Below, in pieces: positions 1 to 15,651 of a stretch of 64,000 nt of DNA. Positions within the stretch are counted from its first letter, which is position 1. The number at the start of each line of letters is the position of its first letter. A program made the translations under genes and the position numbers. The notes beneath the pieces were generated by a model. It made no database searches. It was given only the letters and a program-made list of their open reading frames with translations, and had not been told where the DNA came from. This stretch comes from Candidatus Multivorans sp. (GTDB lineage: Bacteria; Acidobacteriota; Thermoanaerobaculia; Multivoradales; Multivoraceae), in the NCBI GenBank assembly GCA_965224025.1, contig OZ245033.1, forward strand, positions 2,368,001-2,432,000, given 5' to 3'.

Positions 1-207
1 GCGGCCGGCGGCGTCGAGGCCGGCATCCTGGCGCTCGCCATCGACCGTCAGGTGCTGCCGGCGACGCTCAATCTGGACGAGCCCGACGAGGAGTGCGATC
101 TGGACTTCGTGCCCCACGAGCCCCGCGAGGCGAACGTCGAGGTCGCGCTGACCAACTCTTTCGGCTTCGGCGGCACGAATGGCGCCCTGATCATGGCTCG
201 GGCGTAG
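1..207 (+). CDS. fabF: 3-oxoacyl-ACP synthase II, C-terminal part (runs off window)
   Basis: Frame 1 reads ...[20 protein letters not shown]...[20 protein letters not shown], with the typical NSFGFGG KAS C-terminal motif. Confidence 0.9.
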
Positions 208-214
208 CGCAATC
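199..214 (+). repeat. attL-like 16-bp direct repeat CGGGCGTAGCGCAATC
   Basis: Identical copy at 15374-15389; overlaps the fabF stop codon. Confidence 0.85.
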
Positions 215-296
215 CGGCTGGCGGGGCGCCGGCGTTTCCGCTGCTTGTATCCGCGCGGGTTTCTTGGGCGAGTGCGCGACACGGTAGGACTGCGGG

Positions 297-530
297 CTAC
301 TCATCTTCGTCCTCAAAGTACCTCGCGACGGCGCCGCGCCCGGCCAGTTCGTTCGCGGCATAGCGGGTCGCGGTCGCGGCGTCGGTCCATCTTCCGGCCT
401 GCGTGAGCTCGGCGGTGGAGGCGCCGGCGGCGACCAGGGACTGAGCGCTGCCGACGCGCAGAGAGTGCCCGCTCACGCGGCCGGTGGCGCCGGCAATCGC
501 TGCACGAACCGCGGCGGCACGGCGGACGAT
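297..530 (-). pseudogene. Cre-like tyrosine recombinase C-terminal remnant
   Basis: Translates IVRRAAAVRAAIAGATGRVSGHSLRVGSAQSLVAAGASTAELTQAGRWTDAATATRYAANELAGRGAVARYFEDEDE*, showing HxxR, GRW and catalytic Y; in-frame TGA directly upstream, no start. Confidence 0.8.
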
Positions 531-579
531 TCATGGAGCGGCACGCTTGATGAACGTGTCGAGTTCTCGCACCTGGGTG

Positions 580-662
580 TGTAGAGGCGCGCGAGAAATG
601 GCCTCCGATCTCGTGTGAGAAACCCTGCGCAGCCGCGTAGGCACGGCCAACACACTGTTGGC
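580..662 (+). repeat. Left copy of an inverted terminal-like motif block
   Basis: 607-631 matches the reverse complement of 15285-15309 at 23/25; GTAGAG-N6-GAGAAA-N8-GATCTC spacing conserved; palindrome GCCAACA-CAC-TGTTGGC at 646-662. Confidence 0.7.
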
Positions 663-683
663 GCACGGGCGGGATGACGCTGC

Positions 684-1193
684 TCAGCCGGCGAACCGGA
701 GGCCGCGCGGCAGGCCCAGCGGGAACTCGGCCACCGGCGCCAGCAAGTACTCCACGTTGCGCCCCGGCAGTTCTTCGTCGTCGAGCATCACGGGGCGCAC
801 GGCGTAGTTCACCGTCGCTTCCACGACGCCCAGATTGTAGAGCCAGCGGGCGACGTCGCCGACCAGGTCGATCACCTTCGCCGGATGGCAGTGGTCGGCA
901 ACCACTCCGGCCTCGATGGTCGCCAGTCGCCGGGGGCCGGCCTCAGACAGCATCACTTTCACGACGCCGATTCGCCGGCCTCGCTGCACGGCGATCACCG
1001 CGCGCGCTCCGCTGGACCATTTCGCGTAGTCGGCCTCGCTGTCGGCGACAAGCTGGGCGGACAGTCCGGTGAGGATCGACAGGTAGGTGGGATCGGTAGG
1101 CTCCCCGTGGCGAAACGCGTCGTAGATCGCCTTCTCGTCCCCCCGCTCGCAGGGTCGATAGATCAGCGACTCCTCGGGAACGAGGATCCTCAT
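684..1193 (-). CDS. Hypothetical phage protein, possibly GNAT-like fold
   Basis: ATG overlaps the tail-tip stop (ATGA); LIYRPCERGDEKAIY and IAVQRGRRIGVV resemble GNAT strands. Confidence 0.55.
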   Translation of the reverse strand: MRILVPEESLIYRPCERGDEKAIYDAFRHGEPTDPTYLSILTGLSAQLVADSEADYAKWSSGARAVIAVQRGRRIGVVKVMLSEAGPRRLATIEAGVVADHCHPAKVIDLVGDVARWLYNLGVVEATVNYAVRPVMLDDEELPGRNVEYLLAPVAEFPLGLPRGLRFAG

Positions 1194-3826
1194 TCCCAGT
1201 CCCTCTCCCAGCGGGTCAGGACGCCGCCGGCGTCGCCGTAGAGGCGCATTCGGAACGTGCCGTCGCCGGCGTCTGCGACGGACACGCCGCAGACGTGCGG
1301 ACGGCCAGCGGGGCCGTGGGAGACGCCGCTCATTCCCCACAGGCCGGTCCCGCCGGCCGCTCGCCACGCTGGGTCGTCCAGGTCCTCAGGCATCAGGTTG
1401 AGCCATGGAAGGTACGTGCCGTGCCACCCGAGCGGATCGAGGGAAGCGTAGCGCATGTTGTTGGCGGCGGAGCCCAAACTCTGGGCGAACACAACGCTGG
1501 CGCCAAGGGCAGTGTACCGGATCGCCCATCCCGTGGTTGCGGCCCCCACCCACACATCAGCAGTGTTGTCGTCCCAGCGCTGGACCCCTCTTACTCCGGC
1601 CGCCACGTCGTCGATGTCGGCCAGGATCGGCGGCGTGACCACCGCGGGGGCGCCCCAGGCCCCCCAGGCCGCCGCCGGCGCGGGCTCCACCGTGAATGGC
1701 CCGGCGGCCGCGCTGTAGTCCGAGGAGCCGTTGCTGTTCCGCGATTGGACCCGGTACCAGTAGCTGCCGTCAGCGAGGTTCAGATCCGAGTACGAGGTCT
1801 GCGCGGCGGTGGCGATCGTGGCCCAGGCCCCGGACGTGCCCAGACGCCGCTGCAGCCGGTAGCTCGTCGCGCCTGTCGAGGCGTTCCACTCGACCGCGAT
1901 GTCGTCGTCGCTGACGGACCCGCTCAGCCCGGTCGGCGTCGCCGGCGGCCGCGGCGGCGGCGTGGTGTCGATCGTCCCGCTGGCCAATGCCGGCCCGGAC
2001 ACCAACTCATTGCCGTCGACGATCTGGACGGCGTAGACCTCCACGACGATCGTGGGGCTGTCGATCTGCTCCGAAAACAGGTGGAACGTCTGGGTCGGCC
2101 CGGCCTCACCCGGATCGACCGTCTTTGCGACGCCCCCGACCACTTCCAGGACGACCGTGTAGTTGTCGGCTTCGGCCACTTCGGTCCATTCGACAGTGAT
2201 CGCATTGTCCTGGACGTCGAGTCCGCCGAGCGGATAGCGCGAGTAGCTGCCGCTGATCGTGACAGGGCCGGGGCTGGGCAGGGCATCCTCGCCGTCCGCG
2301 CCGAAACGGCCGACCGCGACGGGTGCGCTCCACAGAGCCGCAACTGCGTCGCCGATCGCCGGGTTGCCGATCACGTCGCGCTCCGCGCGCATCAGGTAGC
2401 TGGCCTCGGGCGTCAGTTCGGGCGAGGCGCCGTCATGCCAGTTGAGCCCATCGACCGCCACCGGCCCAGCGTTCAGCTCATCGAACCCCCAGGTGTCGAG
2501 CGGTCGCTTGGACGCCGGCACGCTGTCCGAGGACCAAGCCGCGAACGCGTACTCCGGAGCGCCGTTGCCGTCGCTCCCGTCGCCTCCCTCGACCCCGTCC
2601 ACTCCGTATCGGGCGATGACGGTCGGCACGGTCCACTGATCGGCCACCGCCTGGCCCCTCGCGAGGGCGCCCCGCGGTGGCCGCCGCTGCGCACGCAGCA
2701 GCCGCGGGTACGCCGGGCTCAGGTCCGGCGCTGCGTCGTGCCAGGTCAGGCCGTTGACCGTGCCCGGCTCGTCGAACCCCCAATCGTTTGACGGCCGGCG
2801 ATTCGCCGGCAGGGCCTCGTCCGCGTACGCGGCGAACACGTACTCGGGCGCGTTCTCGCCGTCCTCGCCCGGAAGGCCGTCCTCGCCGGCCGCGCCCGGA
2901 ATGCCGTCCGCCGGGTCCTTGGGCGTGACGCCCACTTCGCGCGCCTCGGACCGAATCTCCGACGTGTCCACGTGGCGCACCGCCACCCGCAGCGCGTCCG
3001 TCCCGATCACGCCCGCTCGCGTAAACCCCGTGCCGGCGATCCCGCCTCGATAGGTCCAGCCGGCGGCGCTCACGAGCACGTCCGCCGTCGGCGGTCCTGG
3101 CTCGCCCACCCGATCGTAGATCTCGCTGTAGGCGTAGTCCGGCGCCGTCGACGGATTCCAGTAAGCCCAATAGCCCTCGGCAACGCCGACGGCCCCGAGG
3201 CCCGCCGGGGGATCGATCGAGTCCGATTTCCCGTCCGCGAGCGCCGGCGGGCTGGACGTCCACGCCGATCGCCGCCGCCGGCCCAGGAAGCGCGCACGCA
3301 CGCGGTAGCCACCCAGCGCCACGTCGCGCAACACGATGCTCCGAGCCGTCGTCCTTTTGAGCGGCTCCCACGGGCCGCGCGGCAGCACCGACCAGTCCCC
3401 CGCCGCTATCTCCGCCGGCGTCGCCCGCCGGCGCGGACGCTGAATGTGGTAGTTGAGGTGATCGATCCGAGGGTCGTCGCCACCCTGCACGCCGATCTCC
3501 AGCAGACTCCGCACCTGATCGCGGTCCACGTACGTCCGCTCCCTCACCGTCACCGCCGTCGGCGCCAGGATCGCCGCGGCCGGATCGACCAACGGCGGCG
3601 CCAGTCGCCGGCGCTGCTCGACAGCCGTGTATTTGCCCGCGTCGTAGCGGCGCGCCTCGACCTGCACCTCCAGCTTGTCCCGCTCTCCGACTCTGGTGAC
3701 GATCCAATCCACGCCGGCGTCAGCGTTCGTGACCAGGTCGCCGACGCTGAGGCCCGTCGGCGCGTCATCGGTCTGCAGGCGGTCGGCCGCCGGCGCCTCG
3801 AGCGACAACGTCGTCCCACTCGCGTC
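1190..3826 (-). CDS. Central tail fibre / tip protein J, C-terminal part (after the frameshift): FN3, collagen-like linkers, duplicated domain
   Basis: VEARRYDAGKY..., FN3 PATPTGLSGSVSDDDIAVEWNASTGATSYRLQR...YWYRVQSRN, GxD/GxE triplets. Confidence 0.75.
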   Translation of the reverse strand, partial: DASGTTLSLEAPAADRLQTDDAPTGLSVGDLVTNADAGVDWIVTRVGERDKLEVQVEARRYDAGKYTAVEQRRRLAPPLVDPAAAILAPTAVTVRERTYVDRDQVRSLLEIGVQGGDDPRIDHLNYHIQRPRRRATPAEIAAGDWSVLPRGPWEPLKRTTARSIVLRDVALGGYRVRARFLGRRRRSAWTSSPPALADGKSDSIDPPAGLGAVGVAEGYWAYWNPSTAPDYAYSEIYDRVGEPGPPTADVLVSAAGWTYRGGIAGTGFTRAGVIGTDALRVAVRHVDTSEIRSEAREVGVTPKDPADGIPGAAGEDGLPGEDGENAPEYVFAAYADEALPANRRPSNDWGFDEPGTVNGLTWHDAAPDLSPAYPRLLRAQRRPPRGALARGQAVADQWTVPTVIARYGVDGVEGGDGSDGNGAPEYAFAAWSSDSVPASKRPLDTWGFDELNAGPVAVDGLNWHDGASPELTPEASYLMRAERDVIGNPAIGDAVAALWSAPVAVGRFGADGEDALPSPGPVTISGSYSRYPLGGLDVQDNAITVEWTEVAEADNYTVVLEVVGGVAKTVDPGEAGPTQTFHLFSEQIDSPTIVVEVYAVQIVDGNELVSGPALASGTIDTTPPPRPPATPTGLSGSVSDDDIAVEWNASTGATSYRLQRRLGTSGAWATIATAAQTSYSDLNLADGSYWYRVQSRNSNGSSDYSAAAGPFTVEPAPAAAWGAWGAPAVVTPPILADIDDVAAGVRGVQRWDDNTADVWVGAATTGWAIRYTALGASVVFAQSLGSAANNMRYASLDPLGWHGTYLPWLNLMPEDLDDPAWRAAGGTGLWGMSGVSHGPAGRPHVCGVSVADAGDGTFRMRLYGDAGGVLTRWERDWE

Positions 3827-6465
3827 GAGAGAGAGAGAGCGACCAGCAACGTTCCGATCTCCGCCGTCTGCGCGGAGGACCACTCGTACGGAGCATCCGC
3901 GTCGCGCAGCGGGTTCTGCGCGTTGTCCGGAGGCGGCAGCGTGATCGACTGGCCGCCGATCTCCAGAATGAGGCGCCCATGCCTCTCCCACGCAGCCGGC
4001 AGATCGCCCGTCGCCCACAGCAGCAGGCGATTGTCCGCGGCGGTGTACTGGATTTCGATCGCCGTTATCTGGGGGCCGTCCGGCACGGCGAGCGACAGCG
4101 CGGACCACCGCGCATAGGTCACCAACCCGAGGTCCGTGGTCGCGGTGCTGATTTCGGGCACTCCGAGATCCCAGCTCCCCAGAGCCGCAGTGGCGGCCGC
4201 CACTGCCGCCGACTGACCCGCGCCCCACGCGATCCGTCCGCCGGCGGCCAGGCGCGGAGACGCCTGATCGAGCGTCAGCGTCTCCTGACCGGGCGTCGAG
4301 TCATCTATCTCGAGGATCCTGAACGCGGCGGGCGCCTCGTACCGCTGCTCGTCCGCGATCCTCACCCGGTCGCCGGGACGCAAGTGCATCCCCTCGAGCG
4401 CCATCCGGAACTTCACCGTTTCCGATTCGTTCTCCTGCTCGCTCAGCGCCAGCAGGCCCATCCTGTGGGCCTGGCCGCGCGACGTGCAGCCCACGGCCGC
4501 GACGTCGCGCTGCCGGAATTCGTACCGCGCCACCAGGCCGTCGCTCACCACCAGCTCGATGCCGGACCGGTAGGCGTCGTCAGGGTCCTGCCACGTCACC
4601 GCGACCGCCGAGTACCGCTCCTGCCAGCGCAGGCCCTGGTACTCGAACTCGCCGTCGACCACGTTCGCGGACCCCAGCGCGGCCGTGACGTCGCCCTCGC
4701 CGTCGATCGCCAACGACGCCGCGCCGGCGCTCCACAACGCACCCGCCCGGCACGCCGACAGGACCCAATCGACCGCCTTGCGCGCCTGCTCCCGCCGCTT
4801 GATCACCCCGTTGAAGCGCCACCGCGGCTCCATGTCCGCCGCGCTGTTGGGCGCCGGCACCAGCGCGTCGCAGCGCCGCGAGAGCTCGAGAAACTCCGCG
4901 CGCGCCGACCGGACGGCCTCCACCATGCCGGGGATGCCGCCCAGCCCGGCACGCCGATCCGTCAGGAGGTCGTAGACGACCCAGGCCGGGTTGTCCGTCC
5001 ACACCCGGCGCATGGTGCCGTCCCAGATCCCCGCACCGTACCGCGCCGCCGAATCAGACGTCGGCGCCGTCGGGTCCCACACCGCCGGCGGCGGCGCCAA
5101 CACCCTGCGGCCGTCGACCTCGTACTCCCGGCGGCTGACGTTCACGCCGTCGGCTCGGTCGGTCTCCATCACCAGCCCGATCACCGCCGAGTGCGGGTAG
5201 CTCTGCTTCACGTCCCGCAACCCCGCCAGGCGCTGCCAGTAGAACCCGTCCACCACCCGCGTCGACGTCGAGTCCTCCGTGAGGCGAGACACCTCGATCT
5301 CCCACGTGCCGCCCGTGCCGACGCTCTCCGGACGCTCCACCCGCCAGGACTGCTCCTGGACCTCCAACGAGAGGTCCCGCACCGTCTGCGTCAGCACCGT
5401 CGTCCAGTTCCCGCCGGACGGCCGCGACCTGATCCGGAGCTCCACCGCGGTCGCCGTTTCGTTGCCGCTCTCGTCGTACGCCGCCAGACGCGGCCACTGG
5501 AGCGTCACCCGCGCCGCGTCGTAGCCCGCCGGCACCGACCGCACCACCGGCGCGCCGCGGGAGACCTGCTCGCGCAGGTGCGTGCCGATGCCGGTCACCG
5601 TGGCGTCGAATCCCAGGAGAGCCTCCTGGCCCGACTCGTCGTGAGCCAAGCCCTTGCGCTCCTGGACCGTCACCCCCTCGATGTTGCGGTCGCCGGACGA
5701 ATCCTCGACCGCGACGCCGTCGATGAACACGGACTGGAGCCCGGCGACCAGACCCTCGATCTCGCCCTCGCCGAGCAGATCGATCACCCGGAGCACCGAG
5801 CGCTCCTCCGACGCCGCGCCGCCGGTCGTCGGCGGCTCCTCCGCGTCCCAATCCCGCCGCGGCCGCTCGGCGCCGGCCGGCAGCTCACCGCCCAGGCCGA
5901 TGTCGGGAGGCGCCGCGCTATCGCCGCCCGTCGGCCGCTCCTGGGTGATGCCGCCGGACACGACCGTCGACCCGACTCTCGTCCGACCGTAGATGAGAGG
6001 CACCGCGCCGCCCTGGGCGACCGAGTTCACCGGACCCGAGAACAGGGTGCGACCGCTGCCGGTCTCCAGGTGATCCGTGTCCGGGATGTCCGGAATCAGC
6101 GCCGGCAGGGCCGCGTAGCCCACGGCCAGACTGCCGATCGTCCACCAGACGGCCGCCGGCACCGCCGCAAGGAAGCCGCTGCCGGCCACCACCGGCGCCA
6201 CCGAGACGTACGCCCGGTCCGGCACTTGCACGTCGAGCTCGCGCGGGCCGATCGCCGTGCCGTCGACCGTGACCCGCCAGGCGCCGAAACGCAACAGCCA
6301 CTTCATCTCCGGCGCCTGCGGCGCCAGCAGCCGAAACGCCTCCGCCACAGAGACCGCATCGAGCTCGAGCACAGCCTCGCCGGTGCTTGAGCGCCGCGCC
6401 GACGCCTCGTCCAGGCGGTTCCGCACGCAGCTGGCCAGCGAGCCCTGCAGACGCAGCGTGATCAT
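3827..6465 (-). CDS. Lambda gpI-like ubiquitin domain fused to gpJ-like tail tip, N-terminal part
   Basis: MITLRLQGSL...VAPVVAGSG...FSGPVNSVAQGGAVPLIYG (gpI) continues in frame into VIDLLGEGEIEGL...WTDNPAWVVYDLLTD...GCTSRGQAHRMG (gpJ). Confidence 0.85.
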
Positions 6466-7235
6466 GCGCGGATCTCCCTGCCAGGCGGCCGGGCGACCTC
6501 GACCACGTGCCGCGCCAGCCGAGACGCCGCCGTGCGCCGCGACAGGCTGGTCGGATCGCACGGGCGCAGCGACGGGTGGTGCAGGAGCTGGCCGGCCTCG
6601 AGCAGCACGCCGGCGTGGTTCGCGGGCTTCGCGCCCCCCATCGCGAGCAGCACCAGGTCGCCGACCTGGGCGGAGGACGGCTCGATCCGCCGCCAGCCCA
6701 GGCGACGCCGCGACGACGAGTACAGGTCGAGCTCGGGCGACGTCACGTCCCAGCGCCAGTCGTACGCCACCGCCGGCAGCTCGATCCCGCACTCGCGCTC
6801 GTACCAGTCCCGGACCAAGGTGTAGCAGTCCGTGACGCCGTGACGGTACGGCCGGGCCAGATAGGGGCGGGACCGATCCGGCCAGAAGAACGGCTCACCG
6901 GCCACCGGCGCACCACAAGATGCAGTGGTGGCGACCGGCACCACGCCGTACGGCACGCCCGCCGCGATCTGGGACTCGAGGTCCTCCCGCGACGGGAACG
7001 ACGCGCCCGAGGGATGCGAGTGGATCACCGCGGCCGCGCCCTCGAGCGACCCCGGCTCGCCTTCGAAGCCGGACCGCGGGTCCGGCGCGACGTTACGCAG
7101 CCGCCGGTACTCGAGACGGCGCTCGAAGCCGCGGAGGCCAGGGCGCCGCACCAGCACGCCCAGCGACTCCTCGGGCCACGCCGTCACCGCGTGGTCCTGC
7201 ATCGCGGCGATCGCCTCGTGGTCGTGAGGGATCAT
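6462..7235 (-). CDS. Tail assembly protein K (JAB/MPN + NlpC/P60)
   Basis: IHSHPSGASFPSREDL JAB motif; GVTDCYTLVRDWY and NHAGVLL...LLHH NlpC/P60 motifs. Confidence 0.9.
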   Translation of the reverse strand: MIPHDHEAIAAMQDHAVTAWPEESLGVLVRRPGLRGFERRLEYRRLRNVAPDPRSGFEGEPGSLEGAAAVIHSHPSGASFPSREDLESQIAAGVPYGVVPVATTASCGAPVAGEPFFWPDRSRPYLARPYRHGVTDCYTLVRDWYERECGIELPAVAYDWRWDVTSPELDLYSSSRRRLGWRRIEPSSAQVGDLVLLAMGGAKPANHAGVLLEAGQLLHHPSLRPCDPTSLSRRTAASRLARHVVEVARPPGREIRA

Positions 7236-7927
7236 CGCCGCAATTGGCTCACCCCGGCGAAGCCGCCGAACGGCAGCACGCCGTCATCGCCAAACCTCAG
7301 CTTGCAGCCCGACAACCGGCGCGAGCAGACGTCGTTCGCCGGGTTCGACACCGGCTCGTCCTCAGCGTTCCAGAGCGCCGCGCCGCGATAGGGGCAGCCG
7401 TCGTCCTCGGCCGGATTCACCCAGGCGTTCCCCTCGCGGCGCCGGTAGGCCCACTGGCACACGTCGCGCAACACCTGCCGCCGCGGGATCATCGCCAGCT
7501 CCAGATCGAGCGGCGACGACAATTGCCACACCACTTCCTCGCGCCCCTGGCTCGACAGCCGGTCCACCACCCAGGATTCCGTCGGCCAGTGGCGGGTAGG
7601 GTCCGCCTCCGATCCACCGTCCAGATAGCGACCCAGCGTGCGCAGGCGCTCGATTGTGGCGCCCTGCCAGTCCGCGGGGAATGCCGCGCCGTCCAGCACC
7701 GACACGCGCAGCGTCGGCCGCACGGAGGCCCCGGAGGAGCCGAAGCCGGCGCCGTCCAGGGCGATCGGCAGCGGACGGTACTCCTGGCCGCCGTACATCG
7801 CCGACTCGACGCCCCGATGGCCCGTCGTGTACCGCTCGACCGTCCCGGACGGCAGCGTCACCGTGAACAGGTCCACCACCGGACCCGCGTCCAGCCTGCT
7901 CGCCTGGACCGATGACGTCGGGCTCAC
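7232..7927 (-). CDS. Minor tail protein L (lambda-like, Fe-S cysteines)
   Basis: CQWAYR...GCPY...DVCSRRLSGCKLRFG...LPFGGF. Confidence 0.9.
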   Translation of the reverse strand: MSPTSSVQASRLDAGPVVDLFTVTLPSGTVERYTTGHRGVESAMYGGQEYRPLPIALDGAGFGSSGASVRPTLRVSVLDGAAFPADWQGATIERLRTLGRYLDGGSEADPTRHWPTESWVVDRLSSQGREEVVWQLSSPLDLELAMIPRRQVLRDVCQWAYRRREGNAWVNPAEDDGCPYRGAALWNAEDEPVSNPANDVCSRRLSGCKLRFGDDGVLPFGGFAGVSQLRR

Positions 7928-8283
7928 GGACTGAAGTCCTCCACCAGATCCACCTCCATGTCCCGGCGCGTCGCCGACACGTACGACGGACCGCTGAAAC
8001 GCTCACAGCGCCACTGGGCGTCAGGCATCCCCGGAGGCAGCGGATCGGGCGACAGGAACGGCTCGTGGCCGCCGCGGGCCTCCAGGAACGTCTTGAGCGA
8101 TTCCGCGTCGGCCGCCAGGATGCTCCGGTACACGCACCGGTACCGCCGCTGCACGTTGTGGACGCCGTCCGCCGCCACCTGCTCGTAGCCGCCGCCCAGG
8201 CGAGCCCGCCGCAGCCTGAAGGCCGTTCGCGGACCCGAACCCTTAGACATGCCGATCGACGGCAAACGGATCGCCGCGGGCAT
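7924..8283 (-). CDS. Minor tail protein M (distal tail)
   Basis: RLGGGYEQVAADGVHN, FLEARGGHEPF; sits between tape measure and L. Confidence 0.8.
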   Translation of the reverse strand: MPAAIRLPSIGMSKGSGPRTAFRLRRARLGGGYEQVAADGVHNVQRRYRCVYRSILAADAESLKTFLEARGGHEPFLSPDPLPPGMPDAQWRCERFSGPSYVSATRRDMEVDLVEDFSP

Positions 8284-11243
8284 CAGGCCGCCCGGTCCGT
8301 GCGGTTGAGCGCCCCGCCGGGGCGCTGCTCGTCCAGCAACAACTCGCGGATCACCGGCCGCAGCGCCCGCGTCAGCCCGTAGGCCGCCTCGCGGCCGAAG
8401 GAATCGGGATCGTCGATGCCCGCGGGCGCCTGGACGGTGACGCCGCCGACATTGATCTCGATCACGCGGCCGCCGCCGCCGATCGCCTCCACGCCCAGAC
8501 GGCCGCCCACGCCGCGGCGAAGCGGCAGGATCGCCTCCAGACCCGCCTCGCCGGCGACGCCGCGGCGGCCGCCGCCGAAACCGAACTCGCTCCGCCGGTC
8601 GATGACGCCGCCGTAACGGAACGCCGTCGGCGGCGCCTGCGCGCGGATCGCGGCGATCTGGAGGGCGCCGGCCGCGGCGACCGCGGCGGCCAGGACGAAG
8701 TTGAGCGGCGGATCCTTCGCGAGCGCCCGGCTGACGCCTTCGGCCGTCGAGACGACGGCGGTTGCGAGCGACGCCGCCTTCTGAAACCGGAATGCGCGCT
8801 TGGACTGTCCGGCGAAGTGCCCCAGGCTCCCCGTGATGCGACGCAGCGCCTCGCCGGTCACGCCGAGCGCTTCGTCCAGGCCGCTTACGGATGCCGTGTA
8901 CCCAATCGTGCCGCCCGTCAGATCCGGCAGCATCTCCAGGCTGCCGGCGGCCGCCGTCTGGACCTTCTCTCGCGCTGCCGACTCGGCCTCCAGCGCGGTG
9001 ACGAGCTCGCCGCGGCGCAGCGTTTCCTCGTACACCGCGTTGATCACGTCCGGCGCCGCTTGCGGATACCGCTCCAGGATGTCCTGCAGCAGCTCCCGCT
9101 CCTCCCGCTCACGTTCGATCCGCTGGAACGCGACCTCCCCGCCCGCCGCGATGCGCGCGTTCTCGTCAGCGAGCTGCGCCAGGACATCGATCGCGGCCTG
9201 CCGATTCGCCGTCGCCTTCGCCTCGGCCGCCGCGAGCTTCTCCGCGGCCGCGGCGGCGCGCTCGTATACCTTCTCGACCGACGCATCCCGGATCCGAGCG
9301 GCTCGCTGCAGCAACCGCTCGCGCTGCTCGCCGTCCGCTACCGACTCGATTTTCCGGACGTTCGCCTGGTAGTCGAGCTGAATCCGCTCCCGCTCCGTCG
9401 CGAGCTGCCGCTCGAGCCTCAGCACTTCGGCCAGACGATCCCCCTCCGCCTCGACGGCGCGGTCCAGGTCCTCGGCTGCGAGCTCGCCGCCGCCGGATCC
9501 GAACTCGCGCGCGGCGAGCCTGGCGACCGTCACGCCGTCCTCGGTCGCGATCCTGATGGCCGAAACCGCCGCCGCGGCAGACGCCTCGACCAGGTCGACC
9601 TGGGCGGCCGAAAAGCGGCCGAGCCGCTGCCGGAGGGCGTCCAGATTGCCCTGGACAGTGTCCACCTCGGCCTCCGCCAGGGACACCCTCCGTGCGTCGA
9701 CGAGATTCGGATCGCCGCCGAGCCGGCCGCCGGCCCCGACACCGCCGATCCGCGCCCGCAGCAGACGGTCCCGGGCGTCCTCGAGCTCCTGGACAGCCGC
9801 GTCGATCCGGTCCTCGATGCCGATCCGCACCGCCTCCCGTTGCGCTTCGGTCAGTGCCTCCAGTTCCTCGCGGGTCTCTCTGATCGAGTCGCCCCAACGG
9901 TCAAAACCTTCCGGCAGAACGGCCAGGCTGTCGTCGAGATCCCGGTTCGCGCGCACGAGCTCGACCACGCCGTAGGCGGCGAGCAGCGCCAGGCCGACCG
10001 GACCACCCAGGAAAGCCATCGCGGCGCTCAGTCCGCGCGTGGCCGTCGTCGCAGTGCGCGTGGCCGCCGTGTACACCCCGGCCGCGACAGCTCCCCGCTG
10101 CTGAGCGATCGCCTGGGCGCGCGTCGCCTGGGCCGCGGTCAGCGCCGCGGGCCGCAGCGCCTCGAGTGCCCGGCGGCCGGCATCCGTCGCCGCCGCGTAC
10201 CGGAGCAGCCGAACAACAGAGATTGCAGCCGTCGCCTGCGCAAGCGCGGTCAACGCGCGCGGATTGATCGTCTCGAGCACGGACGCCACGCCGCCGAGAG
10301 AAGCGGAGGCTAGATCCGCGGCGAGCGACGTCTCCGCCGACCGCCCGATCAGGACCGTGAGAGCGTTGTCGATCCTCGTCCGCGCCTGGTCGAACGTCGC
10401 CCCGGCCCGGTCGAACTCCGCCTGCAGCTCCGGCAAGCCGGCCTCGATCGCCTCGAAGAACTCCCGGCTCTCCACCTCCCCGTCACGGACCTGTTGCCGC
10501 AACCGCGCCACCGAGCCGCCGGCGCCGTCAATGTGCCTGGCGGCCACCCGCAAGAGCACGGGCATGCCGTCGATCAGGCTGTTGAACTCCTCCGCCTCGA
10601 CCCGGCCGCTTCCGAGCGCCTGGGCCAGCTGCAGCAGCGATCCCCCCGCCTGCGCCGAGGAGGTGCCCTGCACCGCGAGAGACTGCGAGACGCCCTCCGT
10701 CACCGCGAGCAACCGCGCCTGCGACGCATCGAGTTCGGACGACGACAGCTCCAACCGCTGGTACAACTGGGCGACCCCGCCCAGTGAACCGCGGGTCCGT
10801 TGCGCCACGGCGTACACGGCCTGCAGCGTCTCGGCGTAGTTGCCCTCGGCCGCCGACGCCTGCCGCGCGCTGTTCGTCACCTGGGTGTAGGCGTCCGCGC
10901 GGCGGATCACCGATCCGATGCCGCGGCGGAGGACTTCCACGCCCGCAAACCCGGCCAGGTATCGGACGTGACGGCCATGAGCTTCCAGGAACGTCTTGCC
11001 GGCCCGGTCCGTCGCCTCCGTCACCTGGTCGGTTGCCCGCGCCATGCCCCGCGACACCGTCGATACGACCTGCCCCTGGGCCCCGTAGAGCCGGAACGCG
11101 CCGGCCGCGCCGCGCGATGCCGCGGCGCCCCGGACCTGGGCCGCCGACAAGCGGTTGACCTGGCCTTCCAGGGCCCTGATGCGGGGCTGGCCGTTGACGT
11201 CGACGTCGACGCGAATTCCCAGGCGAAGATCGCGCTCAGGCAT
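8283..11243 (-). CDS. Tail tape measure protein
   Basis: 986-aa Ala-rich helical ORF; QLAQALGSGRVEAEEFNSLID N-terminal domain; VAGEAGLEAILPLRR C-terminal motif. Confidence 0.92.
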   Translation of the reverse strand: MPERDLRLGIRVDVDVNGQPRIRALEGQVNRLSAAQVRGAAASRGAAGAFRLYGAQGQVVSTVSRGMARATDQVTEATDRAGKTFLEAHGRHVRYLAGFAGVEVLRRGIGSVIRRADAYTQVTNSARQASAAEGNYAETLQAVYAVAQRTRGSLGGVAQLYQRLELSSSELDASQARLLAVTEGVSQSLAVQGTSSAQAGGSLLQLAQALGSGRVEAEEFNSLIDGMPVLLRVAARHIDGAGGSVARLRQQVRDGEVESREFFEAIEAGLPELQAEFDRAGATFDQARTRIDNALTVLIGRSAETSLAADLASASLGGVASVLETINPRALTALAQATAAISVVRLLRYAAATDAGRRALEALRPAALTAAQATRAQAIAQQRGAVAAGVYTAATRTATTATRGLSAAMAFLGGPVGLALLAAYGVVELVRANRDLDDSLAVLPEGFDRWGDSIRETREELEALTEAQREAVRIGIEDRIDAAVQELEDARDRLLRARIGGVGAGGRLGGDPNLVDARRVSLAEAEVDTVQGNLDALRQRLGRFSAAQVDLVEASAAAAVSAIRIATEDGVTVARLAAREFGSGGGELAAEDLDRAVEAEGDRLAEVLRLERQLATERERIQLDYQANVRKIESVADGEQRERLLQRAARIRDASVEKVYERAAAAAEKLAAAEAKATANRQAAIDVLAQLADENARIAAGGEVAFQRIEREREERELLQDILERYPQAAPDVINAVYEETLRRGELVTALEAESAAREKVQTAAAGSLEMLPDLTGGTIGYTASVSGLDEALGVTGEALRRITGSLGHFAGQSKRAFRFQKAASLATAVVSTAEGVSRALAKDPPLNFVLAAAVAAAGALQIAAIRAQAPPTAFRYGGVIDRRSEFGFGGGRRGVAGEAGLEAILPLRRGVGGRLGVEAIGGGGRVIEINVGGVTVQAPAGIDDPDSFGREAAYGLTRALRPVIRELLLDEQRPGGALNRTDRAA

Positions 11244-11260
11244 CTGCTACGCTGTCCTCG

Positions 11261-11455
11261 ATGGCCCGGGACAAGATGGCGGAACGCTTCGTCGGCATCG
11301 GCACCGGCGTGGTGCTGGGCGGGCTCGTGCTCTCGGAGATCTGGCCGGCCGCCGGCGCGGCGCTCGTGTTCGCGGTCGGTGGCGCGCTCGCCTTTTCCGG
11401 CCTCTGCTTCCTGCTCGGCCTGATGGGCGCCCTTTCCGGCCCCGTCCGGCGCTGA
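11261..11455 (+). CDS. Small two-helix membrane protein (moron-like, opposite strand)
   Basis: Two hydrophobic segments; lies between the chaperone and tape measure genes. Confidence 0.5.
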   Translation: MARDKMAERFVGIGTGVVLGGLVLSEIWPAAGAALVFAVGGALAFSGLCFLLGLMGALSGPVRR

Positions 11456-11571
11456 CCGCGTTCTTCAGCCTGAGCCGGCATCGTCGGCCGCCTCGGTTGC
11501 GGCCGTCGCGGCCAGCAAACGCGCGAGCCGTTCGCGCGGTGCAGGGCCTGCAGACCAGCCCGATCGCATCA

Positions 11572-11967
11572 TCACCATTGCCTCCCCTCGTCAGCAGTCG
11601 CTCGGCGATCGAGCTCCTTCAGCACCGCGGCCTCGATGGCGCCCACGCCGGCGAACACCCGGCGCCAGCGCAGCCGCCGGCCGCGCCTCTCCATCCCGCC
11701 GCCGTCCGCCCTCACCGCCCGAAGCGCGGCCCGGACCGCGGCGTAGTCCAGGCCGACGTATCCCGCGGGACCTGTCCGCCACTGTGTCTGCGCAGCCAGA
11801 AACACCCGCACCGCATCCCAGTTTTCCGGCAGCACCCAACATGAATCGTCCTCGCCCGGGAGTTCGCCCTCGATCCGGATTCCCAGCGCCGCGGCGTCTG
11901 CCGCTACCTCGTCGCCCCCTGAGCGGCCGGCGCACCAGTGCCGTCCGACGGCACGGAGGTTTTTCCC
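11572..11967 (-). CDS. Tail chaperone GT extension (DUF1799-like), reached by -1 frameshift
   Basis: VLPENWDAVRVFLAAQTQWRTGPAGYVGLDYAAV; entered through slippery G GGA AAA. Confidence 0.8.
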   Translation of the reverse strand, partial: GKNLRAVGRHWCAGRSGGDEVAADAAALGIRIEGELPGEDDSCWVLPENWDAVRVFLAAQTQWRTGPAGYVGLDYAAVRAALRAVRADGGGMERRGRRLRWRRVFAGVGAIEAAVLKELDRRATADEGRQW

Positions 11968-12281
11968 GGCAGGCCAGCCTGGAAACGCGCGTGAGCGTTG
12001 ATCGCCGCGCGCACGAAGTAGGGAATCCGCGCCAGCAGAGCGATGGTCTCGGGCGTGCACTCCAGCGGCTTGCCCTCGGCGTCCGAGACTTCGTCCCAAT
12101 CGTCGATCGCCGCCGCGAGATACGCCTCGTCGCTCTCGAGAGCCAGCTCACGGGCCCGGTCCGCGGACAGCAGCCGGAAGTGCAGCGTGCATTCCTGGCG
12201 CTCCGTACCGCCGGACGTCGGGACGTCGATCGGCGCCGGCGTCGGGTACGTCGCGTACGGATCGGCCAACCTGAACGTCAT
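11904..12281 (-). CDS. Tail assembly chaperone G
   Basis: MTFRLADP...IDDWDEVSDAEGKPLECTPE...LPGKT; ATGA-coupled to the tube gene. Confidence 0.8.
   Translation of the reverse strand: MTFRLADPYATYPTPAPIDVPTSGGTERQECTLHFRLLSADRARELALESDEAYLAAAIDDWDEVSDAEGKPLECTPETIALLARIPYFVRAAINAHARFQAGLPGKTSVPSDGTGAPAAQGATR
11961..11967 (-). promoter_or_regulatory. Programmed -1 ribosomal frameshift heptamer G GGA AAA
   Basis: CCG GGA AAA ACC (PGKT); the -1 frame gives GKNLRAVGRHW, as in lambda G/GT. Confidence 0.8.
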
Positions 12282-13264
12282 CGGACCGACACCGTGATCT
12301 CGTCGTTGCCGGCCATCGGGAGCGCCCGGAACGGGATGCTCACCTGCTGGATGCCGCTGTCCTCGCCGTACGTCGGCTCCCCGATCTGGATGCGCGGACA
12401 GTCGATCTCGATCAATTTGCCCACGCTCGCGGCGGTGTCCGGACCGCCGTGGACGATCTCGAGCGCGTCCGTCGTGCCCGCCGCGGCCACGTCGAACGGG
12501 TTCCAGGTGGCGAGCGGCGACATGTCGAGCACGATCGTCCCGCTGGGATCGCGGTCCACGATCACCACCTCGTTGTCGGCGCCGATCACCTCGCGGTGCG
12601 TCACCTCGGCGGCCAGGTCGAGTTCGAACGACCGCATCTTGAGATTCGCCTGGCCGAACAGGCTCACGGTCGGCGTGTCCCGCGTCGACCCCGGGCGCGG
12701 CGCCTTGAACGCGGCGTAGTCGCCGGCGATCGCCGCCACGCTCGACGGAACCCGCCAGAGGCCGGTCAGCGTGAACCGCAGTCTCGGGATGTCCGCGGCC
12801 CGCAGGCTGAGCGCCACGCTGCCGCGGCAGCCGGCCAGCACGTGCTGCTGGCCGTCCCAGTTGCCGCGCACCGTCAGCGACGGCTCGGAGCCGGTGATCG
12901 GCTTGTACTCGACGAGGTTGTTGTGCGGATCGGCGGCGGCCTTCTTCTTCGAAGTCTCCGAGAATCCGCACGCGCGCAGCAGCCGGCCCCACCTCGGCGC
13001 CGTGATCGCCTTGGCGGCCGGATCGTATTTCCCGGGGCCGGCCAGCTCCACGCCGAACTCGATCTGTTGGTGGGTGTTGACCGGGATCTGGTCCGAGGAG
13101 CCGTAGTAGCTCCGCACCAGGTCACGGTCGGCCGTGCCGCCCGTCAGCGGCGTCAGCGACGGGTCGTGGGCAAGCATCGCGTCCGCGCCCGCCGTGGCCA
13201 CGGTGGTGCCGTAGACGGCCTCGATCGCCGCCAGGATCAGCTTTCGTCTCGCGCTCAGCGCCAT
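12278..13264 (-). CDS. Major tail tube protein
   Basis: MALSARRKLILAAIEAVYGT...ADRDLVRSYYG...; position upstream of the chaperones. Confidence 0.8.
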   Translation of the reverse strand: MALSARRKLILAAIEAVYGTTVATAGADAMLAHDPSLTPLTGGTADRDLVRSYYGSSDQIPVNTHQQIEFGVELAGPGKYDPAAKAITAPRWGRLLRACGFSETSKKKAAADPHNNLVEYKPITGSEPSLTVRGNWDGQQHVLAGCRGSVALSLRAADIPRLRFTLTGLWRVPSSVAAIAGDYAAFKAPRPGSTRDTPTVSLFGQANLKMRSFELDLAAEVTHREVIGADNEVVIVDRDPSGTIVLDMSPLATWNPFDVAAAGTTDALEIVHGGPDTAASVGKLIEIDCPRIQIGEPTYGEDSGIQQVSIPFRALPMAGNDEITVSVR

Positions 13265-13277
13265 GACCGTCCCTCCG

Positions 13278-13706
13278 TCATTCCTGCTCCACTTCCTGCT
13301 CCCGCAGCTCCGTCACGTGCCAGACGTCCAGCCACCACTGCTCCTCTTTCCTCGCGGCCGGCTGCAGCCGGCCGCGGCGGTGCTCCACCCGCCCCCACGC
13401 CGAGTCCGGCTGCCAGCCCAGCACGGCCCGGCGCACCTCGGAGCGGGCCGCCTCGATCTCCGTCGCGGCGCCCTCGCCGCGGTCGTCCCGCCGGTTGCGC
13501 GCCCTGAGCAGGACGCCGATCTCGACATCCACGACCTGACGGACGAGGCCGACGACATCCGAGGGGCGCGAATCGTCCGCCAACAGGAACACCCAGGCGG
13601 AGTCGCGTCGCGCCGACCGCTGCGCCGCCGCCTCGCTCAGGGCGCCGCGCACCTCGAGGTCCGTCCGCGCGCGCAGCCGCGCCGCGAACTCCGACACGAG
13701 GGTCAC
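13278..13706 (-). CDS. Tail terminator / completion protein (Mu gp37-like)
   Basis: ...VRRAVLGWQPD...WWLDVW; GTG start overlaps the upstream fragment stop. Confidence 0.65.
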   Translation of the reverse strand: MTLVSEFAARLRARTDLEVRGALSEAAAQRSARRDSAWVFLLADDSRPSDVVGLVRQVVDVEIGVLLRARNRRDDRGEGAATEIEAARSEVRRAVLGWQPDSAWGRVEHRRGRLQPAARKEEQWWLDVWHVTELREQEVEQE

Positions 13707-13810
13707 CGCGCATAGCCGCCCCCGGACGGCGAGTCGACGAAGCCGGCCAGCGACCGGCGCGTGAAGACGCGCTCCGGCGCGTCGATCCGGATGCCGCTGC
13801 CGGCGTCCGC
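13703..13810 (-). pseudogene. C-terminal remnant of a Mu gp36-like (DUF1320) head-tail adaptor
   Basis: ADAGSGIRIDAPERVFTRRSLAGF...YAR*; in-frame stop just upstream at the junction. Confidence 0.55.
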
Positions 13811-14347
13811 CTACTGCCGGCTGACTGGGTGCGCCGCGCAAACCTCGGACCCGGCGTCACGGTGAGGGCGGCCGGCCGCTCAAAGCGACGGAGCGGCTCC
13901 TACTCCTCGGCGCACAAGCACGTCAATATCTACGCTGGAGCGGACGACAGTACTCTGCTGCACGAGTACGTCCATCATCTCCAGGAAATGCACCCCGACA
14001 TCGACGGGCTGTTCTACGCCTTTCATCGCCGGCAGACACGAGCCGGGCGCGGCCGGTACGTCGGCACTTACCGGTTCAGAGGCTATGCCGAAACCGAGTA
14101 CGACTACCGCGGCTGGCCAAGTTACGGCAGTGTAGTCGGCGGCGTCGAGGCGATGGGGCGCGCACGCTACGGCCCACGACGAGGCGCTGCGGACGAAGCC
14201 GGTCTCTACGGACATCCTAAGGAACTGATGACGACAGCGCTGCGGTCCATCCTCACCGGATGGCCGCCTGGATCGCTGAACAAGATGATCATGGAAGATC
14301 GCGAACTCTTCGAGTTCGTCCTTGGCCTGCTAGGATGGGAACCGTGA
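13811..14347 (+). pseudogene. C-terminal zincin metallopeptidase domain of a MuF-like head protein (5' truncated)
   Basis: LLPADWVRRAN...LLHEYVHHLQE...PKELMTTAL; lies upstream of gpG as gpF does in Mu-like phages. Confidence 0.6.
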
Positions 14348-14718
14348 GGCACGCAATCGAACATGTCCGAAAGGGCGTCTGGGCACCGGCCGTCATGGTC
14401 TGGGACGACCTGGCCGGCACCCTTGAGTGGACCCGCGGACCGGACGTCGAGGACCCGATGAATCCGATCCTGATGCAGGCCGTGGTCGACTCGGTCGAGC
14501 GGGTCCGCAGAGAGGGCCGCATCGTCCTCCAGACAGAACCCGAGCCCCACCGCTTCGTCCTCGAGGACGCCGCCCACGACCCGGCCGACTTCCTGCGCCT
14601 GATCGACTATGAACAAGGCTGGATTCGCTGCGGCGACGTACGCCTGCCGCCGTCGCTCCAGGACGTTGAGATGACGCCGCCCGAGGTCTTCGATCTGCCG
14701 CCCGGCGTGATCGCCTGA
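14344..14718 (+). CDS. Hypothetical protein coupled to the MuF-like domain (possible partner/immunity)
   Basis: GTGA overlap; 124 aa ending LPPGVIA. Confidence 0.55.
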   Translation: MRHAIEHVRKGVWAPAVMVWDDLAGTLEWTRGPDVEDPMNPILMQAVVDSVERVRREGRIVLQTEPEPHRFVLEDAAHDPADFLRLIDYEQGWIRCGDVRLPPSLQDVEMTPPEVFDLPPGVIA

Positions 14719-14747
14719 CGGCCCGGGACTGAGGAGCCACGCCTCAA

Positions 14748-15206
14748 TTGACGACGATCGACATCACGGTCGACGACGACGCGGTCTCCTCGGCGCTCGG
14801 TCGGCTCCAGCAGCGCGCCTCCGATTTGTCGCCCGCGATGGCAGTCGTTGCCTCCCTGCTGCGCGAGAGCGCCGAAGAGAGTTTCGAGCGCCAGGCCGCC
14901 TCCGACGGCACGCCTTGGGCGCCGCTCGCGCCGGCCACGGCAGCCCGTAAGGCCCGCAAGGGCTACTCCCCCCTGGCACTTGTGCGCGACGGTTACCTGC
15001 GCAGCCTCACCGCGCTGTCGACCCCTACTACGGCCGTCGCCGGCACCAACCTCATCTATGCCGCCACCCATCAGTTCGGCCACGAGCACGACAACCTGTT
15101 CGGCCGCGGCATCGAGGCCACGATCCCCGCTCGCCCCTTCCTCGGCCTGCGGCGCGACTACGTGGACGACATCGTCGACGTCATCATTCAGCACCTCACG
15201 GCCTAG
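14748..15206 (+). CDS. Phage virion morphogenesis protein (Mu gpG-like)
   Basis: DGTPWAPLAPAT, GTNLIYAATHQFG, IPARPFLGL. Confidence 0.9.
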   Translation: MTTIDITVDDDAVSSALGRLQQRASDLSPAMAVVASLLRESAEESFERQAASDGTPWAPLAPATAARKARKGYSPLALVRDGYLRSLTALSTPTTAVAGTNLIYAATHQFGHEHDNLFGRGIEATIPARPFLGLRRDYVDDIVDVIIQHLTA

Positions 15207-15245
15207 AAACGTCCCGCCAGATTCCGCGAAATTCCCGTTGGTACC

Positions 15246-15336
15246 GCCAACACCCTGTTGACGCCGTCCCTTCGGTCGCCGATTTGCGCAGCGTTTCTCG
15301 CACGAGATCTCTGCGGGTTTCTCCAATTTCTCTACT
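15246..15336 (-). repeat. Right copy of the inverted terminal-like motif block
   Basis: Mirror of 580-662, including GCCAACA-CCC-TGTTGAC at 15246-15262. Confidence 0.7.
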
Positions 15337-15373
15337 GTGTGAGCCACTAGCTGAGCCGCCCCCCCGCGTCCGA

Positions 15374-15389
15374 CGGGCGTAGCGCAATC
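15374..15389 (+). repeat. attR-like 16-bp direct repeat
   Basis: Identical to 199-214. Confidence 0.85.
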
Positions 15390-15391
15390 AC

Positions 15392-15421
15392 TTGACACCC
15401 CAGCGCCTTCCGGTGTCTAAT
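15392..15421 (+). promoter_or_regulatory. Sigma70-like promoter of the aro-his-trp operon
   Basis: TTGACA (15392-15397), 18 nt spacer, TCTAAT (15416-15421). Confidence 0.6.
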
Positions 15422-15466
15422 CCGGCGTTCTGGAACACTTCGGTTCCCAGCGACCTTCGCCACGCC

Positions 15467-15571
15467 ATGAATACACCGGCCCGCGACATCGTGATCTCGA
15501 CCGTCTCCGTCGCTTCGACGACCAGCGTCGCGTCGAAGGTCTGGTGGGCTCACGGTCACGGCAAGGGCTGA
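15467..15571 (+). CDS. Leader peptide with WW and HGH control codons
   Basis: MNTPARDIVISTVSVASTTSVASKVWWAHGHGKG*, directly upstream of his and trp genes. Confidence 0.8.
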   Translation: MNTPARDIVISTVSVASTTSVASKVWWAHGHGKG

Positions 15572-15573
15572 AT

Positions 15574-15649
15574 CCGGGCCAAGTCCCGGTTCGTGGTCCG
15601 GGACGAGGGTGAACTAAGAAGACCTCCTTTCGGATCGAAGGAGGTCTTC
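15574..15649 (+). promoter_or_regulatory. Attenuator with SD-sequestering hairpin
   Basis: Perfect 12-bp stem 15618-15629/15638-15649 buries AAGGAGG 7 nt before TTG 15652; competing stems upstream. Confidence 0.75.
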
Positions 15650-15651
15650 CG

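Follow-up and report, generated by a model that had tools for sequence, protein, structure and literature searches.

Introduction

The described systems that come closest to the locus reported here are the Mu-like siphoviruses, defective Mu and mini-Mu elements, the F-type tailocins and, for the tail itself, phage lambda. Phage Mu duplicates 5 bp of its target, and mini-Mu derivatives move only with a helper. The clusters for F-type pyocins occupy one fixed locus (trpE-trpG) in all strains, carry PrtN/PrtR together with a complete lysis cassette and have no detectable tail terminator (10.1101/2021.02.16.431561). Here we analysed a cluster of non-contractile phage tail genes that lies beside a fabF-like gene in Candidatus Multivorans sp. 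(Acidobacteriota; assembly GCA_965224025.1, contig OZ245033.1, positions 2,368,001 to 2,432,000). This whole stretch of 64,000 nucleotides (nt) is called the window, and positions without a contig name are counted from its first letter.

A sequence-only reading of the window had taken the cluster, enclosed by att repeats and accompanied by an integrase remnant, for either a domesticated tail weapon or a recently deleted prophage. We find that it is most likely the tail arm of a defective, decaying Mu-like transposable siphovirus prophage. The evidence comes from the ends of the unit, from a full-length relative in another genome of the same genus (G007), from the scar of an internal deletion and from further remnants in the genome that contains the window (G000). 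Gene families were assigned by Pfam and PHROGs profile searches; the window has a G+C content of 67-74%, and real frames were picked via third-position G+C (GC3).

Results

The tail module sits in a transposon-type unit of 14.76 kb (580-15336) that has its own ends. These ends (580-631 against 15336-15285) are imperfect inverted repeats of about 52 nt in the same register, with 23 of 25 core positions matching and repeated GAGAAA(C/T) motifs (Table 1). The boundaries were set by copy comparison (left end, two copies; right end, three). In self-BLAST, 580-651 was 100% identical to positions 2268419-2268490 of contig C1, the end of a second element that we call locus B, and 14756-15336 was 98.8% identical to C1 2261899-2262479, likewise in locus B. 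A third element, locus C, matched 15033-15336 at 100% identity (C1 2918218-2918521). Similar ends adjoin tail genes in G007, G009, G017 and G008. A 3-bp match between the flanks was present in all three elements for which both ends are available (GTG in the window, CTC at locus B and CTC at the full-length G007 phage).

The outermost bases differ between the two sides of the unit. The head-side end has the sequence ...CTCTACT in each of the three copies (window 15330-15336; G000:C1:2261899 and 2918218) and the tail-side end opens with TGTAGAG, while the phage in G007 opens with TGTTGAG at both ends (...CA on both sides). The terminal base of the ...CTCTACT end thus departs from the TG...CA pattern and could impair transposition.

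The full-length relative spans about 50 kb (~407.4-457.3 kb of contig 10 in G007) and consists of two divergent arms that leave a central regulatory region. Its tail arm encodes, in this order, a protease, a scaffold/cement protein, the major head protein, a gp36-like adaptor, terminator, tube, G/GT, tape measure, M, L, K, I-J and small genes, and terminates in an end resembling the one at window position 580. The other arm runs from Gam through the transposase (phrog_310), a MuB-like transposition ATPase (phrog_296), a GemA-like gene, endolysin, TerL, Mu portal, methyltransferases and MuF to gpG and cargo. There the head-side end lies about 7 kb beyond gpG; that is, gpG is not always next to the end. 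G009 shows a partial layout with the same families, and homologues of the transposase and its AAA+ partner were detected in G046 and G055. The phage family is a Mu-like transposable siphovirus lineage in Acidobacteriota. The window unit follows the G007 layout minus one stretch: an end, the tail arm on the minus strand, the rest of the packaging arm on the plus strand, and an end.

The place of the missing stretch is marked by a scar at 13807/13808: here the C-terminal third of MuF stands head to head with what is left of gp36, its last ~33 codons. DNA homology to the 3' end of gp36 in G041 extends from the terminator and stops at 13807; full-length gp36 homologues were found in G009 (PF07030 match) and G007 (phrog_195 match). 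On the other side of the scar, the MuF stump matches residues ~375-545 of the 549-amino-acid (aa) MuF of locus B at 38% identity (tblastn), and the stump alone gave no Pfam or PHROG match. A Logan contig (11284-14785) crosses the scar with 0 differences. Set against the G007 map, the junction shows what reads as the product of one deletion of about 25 kb. With it went the capsid, scaffold and protease genes together with most of gp36, the regulatory centre, the genes for Gam, the transposase, B, GemA, the endolysin, TerL and the portal, and two thirds of MuF. The terminator is now preceded by the antisense strand of a gene stump and not by a promoter region.

Pfam and PHROGs searches found no capsid, portal, terminase, replication, repressor or lysis genes between the att repeats, as the sequence-only reading had stated, and no regulator families on the open reading frames (ORFs) of 215-15373. 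The family endolysin had no tblastn match in G000; other lysis families were not searched genome-wide. The span that had been called headless, ending at 15206, nevertheless holds head-side material: the gene at its right limit is an intact gpG on the plus strand and not the terminator, and the stumps of gp36 and MuF are present as well. The list of tail functions given earlier (terminator, tube, G/GT, tape measure, M, L, K and I-J, all coupled) was borne out by family matches and by overlapping junctions. The families are all represented, but the description 'nearly intact' leaves out that J is frameshifted at a (CT)6C tract.

All tail genes lie on the minus strand, and their junctions are ATGA, GTGA or TGATG overlaps. 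The tube protein shares 84% identity with its homologue in G041 and 31-37% with deposited phages, the best matches of which include RcapMu, RC1, Rhodovulum phages and vB_ThpS-P1. At G/GT, the slippery heptamer GGGAAAA is intact (11967-11961), the -1 frame is the DUF1799 frame, and a hairpin follows downstream at 11938-11954. The N-terminal part of the fused I-J protein starts with an ATG at 6467-6465 and is I-like, followed by J with FNIII-A_GpJ and Phage-tail_3.

Table 1. Coordinates of features in and around the tail unit of the window
Feature	Position	Strand	Remarks
fabF-like ketoacyl-ACP synthase gene, 3' end	1-207	plus	weak KAsynt_C_assoc match; 85-91% conserved in same-genus genomes
attL-type 16-nt direct repeat CGGGCGTAGCGCAATC	199-214		contains fabF stop codon
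tyrosine-recombinase-like C-terminal stump	~298-546	minus	~82 codons; translation SGHSLRVGSAQ...GRWTDAATATRY
3-bp target-site duplication GTG, left copy	577-579		matches 15337-15339
tail-side terminal inverted repeat	580-631		TGTAGAGG..GAGAAAT..GATCTCGTGTGAGAAACCCTGCGCA, read inwards
last tail-arm gene	684-1193	minus	169 aa; ATGA overlap with J; GC3 0.82-0.86
J, C-terminal part	1190-3826	minus	frame differs from N-terminal part; fn3-like region
(CT)6C dinucleotide tract	3827-3839	minus	J reading frame switches here
fused I-J, N-terminal part	3840-6467	minus	phrog_31 8.5e-131, phrog_32 8.3e-16, PF24801, PF13550
K-like tail tip protein	6462-7235	minus	JAB + NlpC/P60; spans residues 7-257/261 of G009 homologue
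L-like minor tail protein	7232-7927	minus	PF05100 8e-38, phrog_18 2.1e-58
M-like minor tail protein	7924-8283	minus	PF05939 8.9e-11; spans residues 1-117/117 of G007 homologue
tape measure protein	8283-11243	minus	986 aa; TMP_3 PF20155 6.5e-47; 22 PHROG tape-measure families
G-T extension, T frame	11572 to ~11967	minus	DUF1799, phrog_680
tail assembly chaperone G	11904-12281	minus	phrog_313, phrog_569
tail tube protein	12278-13264	minus	328 aa; Phage_tube_2 PF18906 3e-21
tail terminator	13278-13706	minus	142 aa; GTG start; PF23840 1.5e-17
gp36' stump, Mu gp36-like head-tail adaptor	13707-13807	minus	last ~33 codons
MuF' stump, MuF-like minor head gene	13808-14347	plus	C-terminal HExxH-containing extension only; ORF 13829-14347
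small gene between MuF and gpG	14260-14718	plus	29% identity to same-position locus B gene
Mu G-like virion morphogenesis/Neck1 gene (gpG)	14748-15206	plus	Phage_tail_S PF05069 3.3e-30, phrog_26 2.5e-34
head-side terminal inverted repeat	15285-15336		reverse complement AGTAGAG..GAGAAAC..GATCTCGTGCGAGAAACGCTGCGCA
3-bp target-site duplication GTG, right copy	15337-15339		matches 577-579
attR-type 16-nt direct repeat	15374-15389		exact copy of CGGGCGTAGCGCAATC
aroD/aroE-like fusion gene, right flank	15652-17193	plus	DHquinase_I + shikimate dehydrogenase domains

The break in J falls on an unusual sequence. Dinucleotide repeats of at least 6 units occur 8 times in the whole 5.14-Mb genome, and the J tract is among them. 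Past ...GTLLVALSLS the N-terminal frame becomes arginine-rich nonsense, and the C-terminus resumes in another frame from ...SLDASGTTLSLEAP. Homologous I-J proteins are encoded by a single ORF in G009 (1804 aa) and G007 (1703 aa), and both halves from the window align to them, the C-terminal part with 50-59% identity to residues ~786-1137. The window J bears an insert of ~140 aa that is absent from the J of G007 and G009, and the tract lies at the end of this insert. A Logan contig covering 622-6028 showed 0 differences, including the J tract, in two runs from the same sample, which is probably the source of the genome. This rules out only that the frameshift is a slip of one assembler. Length variants of the tract were not listed at a frequency of at least 5% in the Logan contigs, which drop rare variants.

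The last gene of the tail arm had no Pfam or PHROG match; as a lead only, it may have a GNAT-like fold, the nearest atlas clusters being DUF1999 and N-acetyltransferase (0.95). A 64-aa ORF (11261-11455, plus strand) that resembles a hydrophobic membrane protein in sequence runs antisense in the space that separates the T frame from the tape measure gene; it has a high-GC3 phase too and gave no family match. Opposite-strand ORFs of similar size are found at this position in G041 (232855-233094) and G007 (443586-443819), and the ORF could be a moron, for instance an exclusion gene.

Towards the head-side end, gpG differs from its locus B counterpart by 3 non-synonymous and 3 synonymous changes when the first three codons are excluded, which are too few for an estimate of selection. 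Across this gene and the right end, identity to loci B and C is 98.8-100%; for the MuF stump and the small gene beside it, protein identity is only 38% and 29%. This sharp mosaic boundary, 14756-15336 versus 13808-14755, suggests a recent recombination or gene conversion between remnants.

The window unit shows the features of a defective Mu-type member: inverted-repeat ends, a short target duplication without site specificity, and gpG, MuF' and gp36'. A transposase and its AAA+ partner are present in G007 and absent from both the unit and G000. The window copy is therefore a non-autonomous derivative. For the G007 transposase, B, Gam, capsid, protease, scaffold, gp36 and endolysin, tblastn searches of G000 returned no match at E<=1e-6. 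PF05065 had 0 matches in G000, as had phrog_1005, the latter a weak negative with 0 matches in control genomes too. Twenty matches to phrog_310 in G000 cover the central part of the profile only, and most fall in groups of identical-length repeats; we read them as probable insertion sequences.

Other remnants of the family in G000 differ in the extent of their deletions. Locus B (C1:2261899-2268490, 6.6 kb) retains TerL residues 552-608 through to gpG, locus C TerL residues 342-608 through to gpG, and a further unit, E2, a headless tail arm. Locus B has both window-type ends, lacks a transposase and contains the TerL stump, a Mu portal gene, a 366-aa gene, a Tle1-like (DUF2235) gene, MuF with an HExxH extension, a small gene and gpG. 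It interrupts a gene of the CarboxypepD_reg family, the flanks of which overlap by exactly 3 bp on intact homologues (L036, L039 and L034). Locus C (~C1:2918218-2924793) has the right end only and the same genes as locus B. Portal_Mu, Phage_Mu_F, Mu-like_Pro and Phage_Mu_Gp36 are among the families found in loci B and C and in relatives. The pair formed by the Tle1-like phospholipase-type gene and MuF-HExxH in both loci looks like phage-borne toxin cargo.

E2 is a headless Mu-type unit of ~15.3 kb (G000:C1:4994736-5010084) with about 66% DNA identity to the tail genes of the window. Its own inverted-repeat ends contain GTGCGAGAAA motifs in repeats. Besides a GemA-like gene, it carries a tail arm that appears complete, in which I-J is uninterrupted (1893 aa). 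A second copy, inverted and 100% identical, lies ~35 kb away (C1:5045413-5047675 plus C1:1-13084). We looked for the flank pattern of an inversion by replicative transposition between the two copies, which could not be shown.

We then compared the fabF site among same-genus genomes. None of the 24 genomes, which are species representatives and not same-species strains, carries tail DNA at fabF. The site was empty in 16, with a gene spacing of 157-1603 bp; fabF and aroDE are ~13.4 kb apart in four (G006 (L029), G021 (L030), G005 and G020); and the flanks are on separate contigs or far apart in the remaining four. The ~13.4-kb insert is a single 4150-aa ORF in the two genomes examined for it, and nine window tail proteins gave no match at E<=1e-3 in the four genomes that carry this insert. 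Thus, the check proposed with the sequence-only reading, conservation of the headless unit at fabF in related genomes, came out against such conservation.

Tail modules do occur elsewhere in the genus. They share 65-74% DNA identity with that of the window and all lie away from fabF; the nearest relatives of the tail genes are phages of 70-77% identity, against which a dN/dS ratio would mirror evolution as a phage rather than the time elapsed after the deletion. A tube homologue (E<=1e-10) was found in 11 of 42 genus genomes, G000 counted in. G041 keeps the genes from capsid through a truncated L and has no J. A subgroup represented by G017 (L017:7578-9732), to which G008, G046 and G055 belong, has tubes of 54-55% identity. 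The interval from central regulator gene to terminator is occupied there not by protease, capsid and gp36 but by two proteins with fn3 domains (317 and 353 aa); G055 has an IS21-type insertion (rve and IstB) in this interval as well. No publication on prophages or tailocins of this genus was among the matches listed in a full-text literature search.

The insertion site itself has an older history. The att repeats and the integrase remnant reported earlier are both real: the 16-nt repeat CGGGCGTAGCGCAATC occurs at either side of the insert, and the stump is the C-terminal remainder of a tyrosine-recombinase-like gene on the minus strand. They had been assigned to the tail prophage, which is where our reading differs. 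The repeat was found by reading the flanks and an empty site; a general repeat scan of 1-17000 drowned in high-GC noise. This empty site is on C2, a 76-kb contig of the same assembly, in which fabF and aroDE join without an insert (G000:C2:37787-39856, 86-88% identical), so that window position 215 is followed by 15377 and the core is present once. C2 probably stems from a related organism of this sample; the contamination score of the genome is 5.66%. Given the att repeats, the recombinase stump and the single-core empty site, an integrase island did therefore integrate in the 3' end of fabF, creating the 16-nt repeat. Minus the tail unit, the island between the att repeats amounts to just ~400 bp. 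The tail unit, with its own ends and 3-bp duplication, is nested in a ~400-bp relic of an older integrase island.

The stump gave no Pfam match at E<=0.1. Pieces of ~200 nt similar to it (window 282-552) are found at three other places in G000 (C1:1280856-1281055, 1291097-1291279 and 1461153-1461340; 87-94% identity), and the neighbouring ORF is large and host-like at two of these three. The piece is also present in many same-genus genomes at 77-93% identity (82-94% for the copies in G000 and other genomes taken together), and it recurs in the form of short stumps (ORFs of 80-189 aa). Because the same ~200-nt piece recurs in G000 and in other genomes, the stump is a common relic; the piece is either a relic of unusual uniformity or a short element that occurs in repeats.

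Discussion

The arrangement at fabF is most simply described as the outcome of five steps. An integrase island at fabF would have decayed to its stump, and a Mu-like phage would then have transposed into that stump. A single internal deletion would have stripped the lethal and head functions and left a tail arm too recently orphaned for decay. J would have been the first tail gene hit, broken by slippage at a hypermutable repeat. We infer that the tail operon is without a native promoter, an activator, lysis genes and a transposase, and that it is therefore not inducible, not released and not self-mobile. The unit would persist as inert cargo at an early stage of decay. Between the two options offered beforehand, the recently deleted prophage is supported, with the scar at 13807/13808 as its trace; the domesticated weapon does not fit the absence of the module at fabF in all 24 genomes and the existence of the full-length relative in G007.

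Several observations weigh against decay. The tail genes except J are full length compared with relatives, tightly coupled and of host-like GC3 (0.85-0.96). Their preservation, together with the intact G/GT frameshift site, fits a recent deletion and fits selection as well. E2, which is independent by descent, also retains a whole tail arm, and its deletion ends within ~0.5 kb upstream of the terminator; two such endpoints, in the window and in E2, are somewhat unexpected under random decay. The frameshift in J is known from the reads of one sample only. Finally, the consensus scan that found no sigma-70-like promoter in 200-15700 is a weak test in an acidobacterium.

In an alternative reading, the unit would be a helper-dependent 'mini-Mu' tail cassette, which an infecting full phage would move, switch on and perhaps package, and which would supply alternative tail parts or ride along, with the (CT)n tract of J as an on/off switch. 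The unit retains both its ends, flanked by a matching 3-bp duplication. Locus B, which has no transposase, likewise has both ends and a clean 3-bp duplication within a host gene, so that it either moved after its deletion or was deleted after insertion. There are two inverted copies of E2 with 100% identity, though the transposase of the family was not found in the genome, and the frameshift in J falls in one of the eight long dinucleotide repeats. No helper was found in G000, however, and deletions after insertion account for the same structures more simply. The head-side end with ...CTCTACT in all three copies, against ...CA in G007, may impair transposition, and the variation in tract length that a switch would produce was not listed at 5% or more in contigs that drop rare variants. 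We consider such a cassette unlikely. A broader version, in which these Acidobacteriota carry a class of non-autonomous, transposon-ended Mu-type tail cassettes with a whole siphovirus tail arm (the window unit and E2) that are mobilised and activated in trans by an infecting full phage or used as tailocins, with the (CT)n tract in the inserted domain of J phase-switching the receptor-binding half of the tip protein, is decidedly unlikely.

It is very unlikely that the unit is a domesticated F-type tailocin, that is, a headless non-contractile tail kept as a killing particle, which would depend on a host promoter for expression and on lysis functions encoded elsewhere for release. The complete, coupled set from terminator to tip without capsid or packaging genes, the host-like GC3 and the retained G/GT frameshift site speak for it. 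So does E2, a further headless tail arm that occurs twice in identical form in the genome and has an intact I-J of 1893 aa; E2 is a better candidate for a tailocin or a mini-Mu than the window unit. The window unit, however, has no counterpart at fabF in the 24 same-genus genomes, contains neither a regulator nor a lysis gene, and a homologue of the phage endolysin was not found in the genome. Its J is frameshifted, its upstream boundary is a scar of two gene stumps and not a promoter region, and it still carries useless head-side pieces (MuF' and gpG) and both transposon ends. It is also unlike the F-type pyocin clusters, with their fixed locus, PrtN/PrtR, full lysis cassette and no recognisable terminator.

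An assembly artefact, a chimeric join of phage and chromosome in a metagenome-assembled genome, is extremely improbable: the 5.66% contamination, the C2 empty-site version at 86-88% identity and the listed Logan contigs (three runs, one sample), which leave 389-621 and 15337-15542 unbridged, would allow for it, but Logan contigs from two runs tile 622-15062 with 0 differences save one repeat-derived piece, the contig depth of 37-44 (X1) is near the 34 of the fabF flank, and a misjoin would yield neither the precise ends with their matching 3-bp duplication nor the exact att duplication. A direct join of fabF and aroDE was not seen in the Logan contigs, which have no long piece at 389-621 and 15337-15542 and are thus weak on excision.

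The locus at fabF is above all a caution, as a headless, well-kept tail cluster within att repeats looks like a tailocin, and it is the relatives and the unit's own ends that reveal a deleted transposable prophage. The comparison also documents a Mu-like siphophage lineage in Acidobacteriota with a two-armed gene layout and a 3-bp target duplication, and a single genome that harbours several differently deleted remnants of such phages.

Comparison with known systems

The full-length G007 phage shares with the Mu-like siphoviruses (RcapMu of Rhodobacter capsulatus and its group; D3112/B3 of Pseudomonas) the combination of Mu portal, MuF, gpG, Mu I protease, gp36, Gam, GemA and a DDE transposase with its AAA+ partner with a lambda-like non-contractile tail. 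Inverted-repeat ends with motif repeats, a short target duplication and insertion within host genes are common to them as well. In contrast to these phages, the tube is only 31-37% identical to deposited ones, two divergent arms share the structural genes between them, gpG lies near one end, and the window copy lacks everything between gp36' and MuF'. The target duplication further differs from that of Mu, being 3 bp in all three elements.

With defective Mu and mini-Mu, the window unit shares the retention of both ends, the loss of the transposase and an interior reduced by deletion. It differs in that a complete tail arm is kept rather than an arbitrary marker and that a helper was not found in the genome.

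The F-type pyocins of Pseudomonas aeruginosa and the Listeria monocin likewise consist of a lambda-like non-contractile tail set without capsid or packaging genes. Unlike in the F-type pyocins, no regulator, lysis gene or locus conservation was found here, the terminator is kept, the fibre gene J is broken, and transposon ends and head stumps are attached.

The lambda tail (U, V, G/GT, H, M, L, K, I and J) agrees with the window in gene order, in families and in a GGGAAAA-type -1 slippery site. Unlike in lambda, I and J lie in one frame here, in G007 and in G009, with ~30% identity to lambdoid J, and the window tube belongs to Phage_tube_2 and not to the lambda V family.

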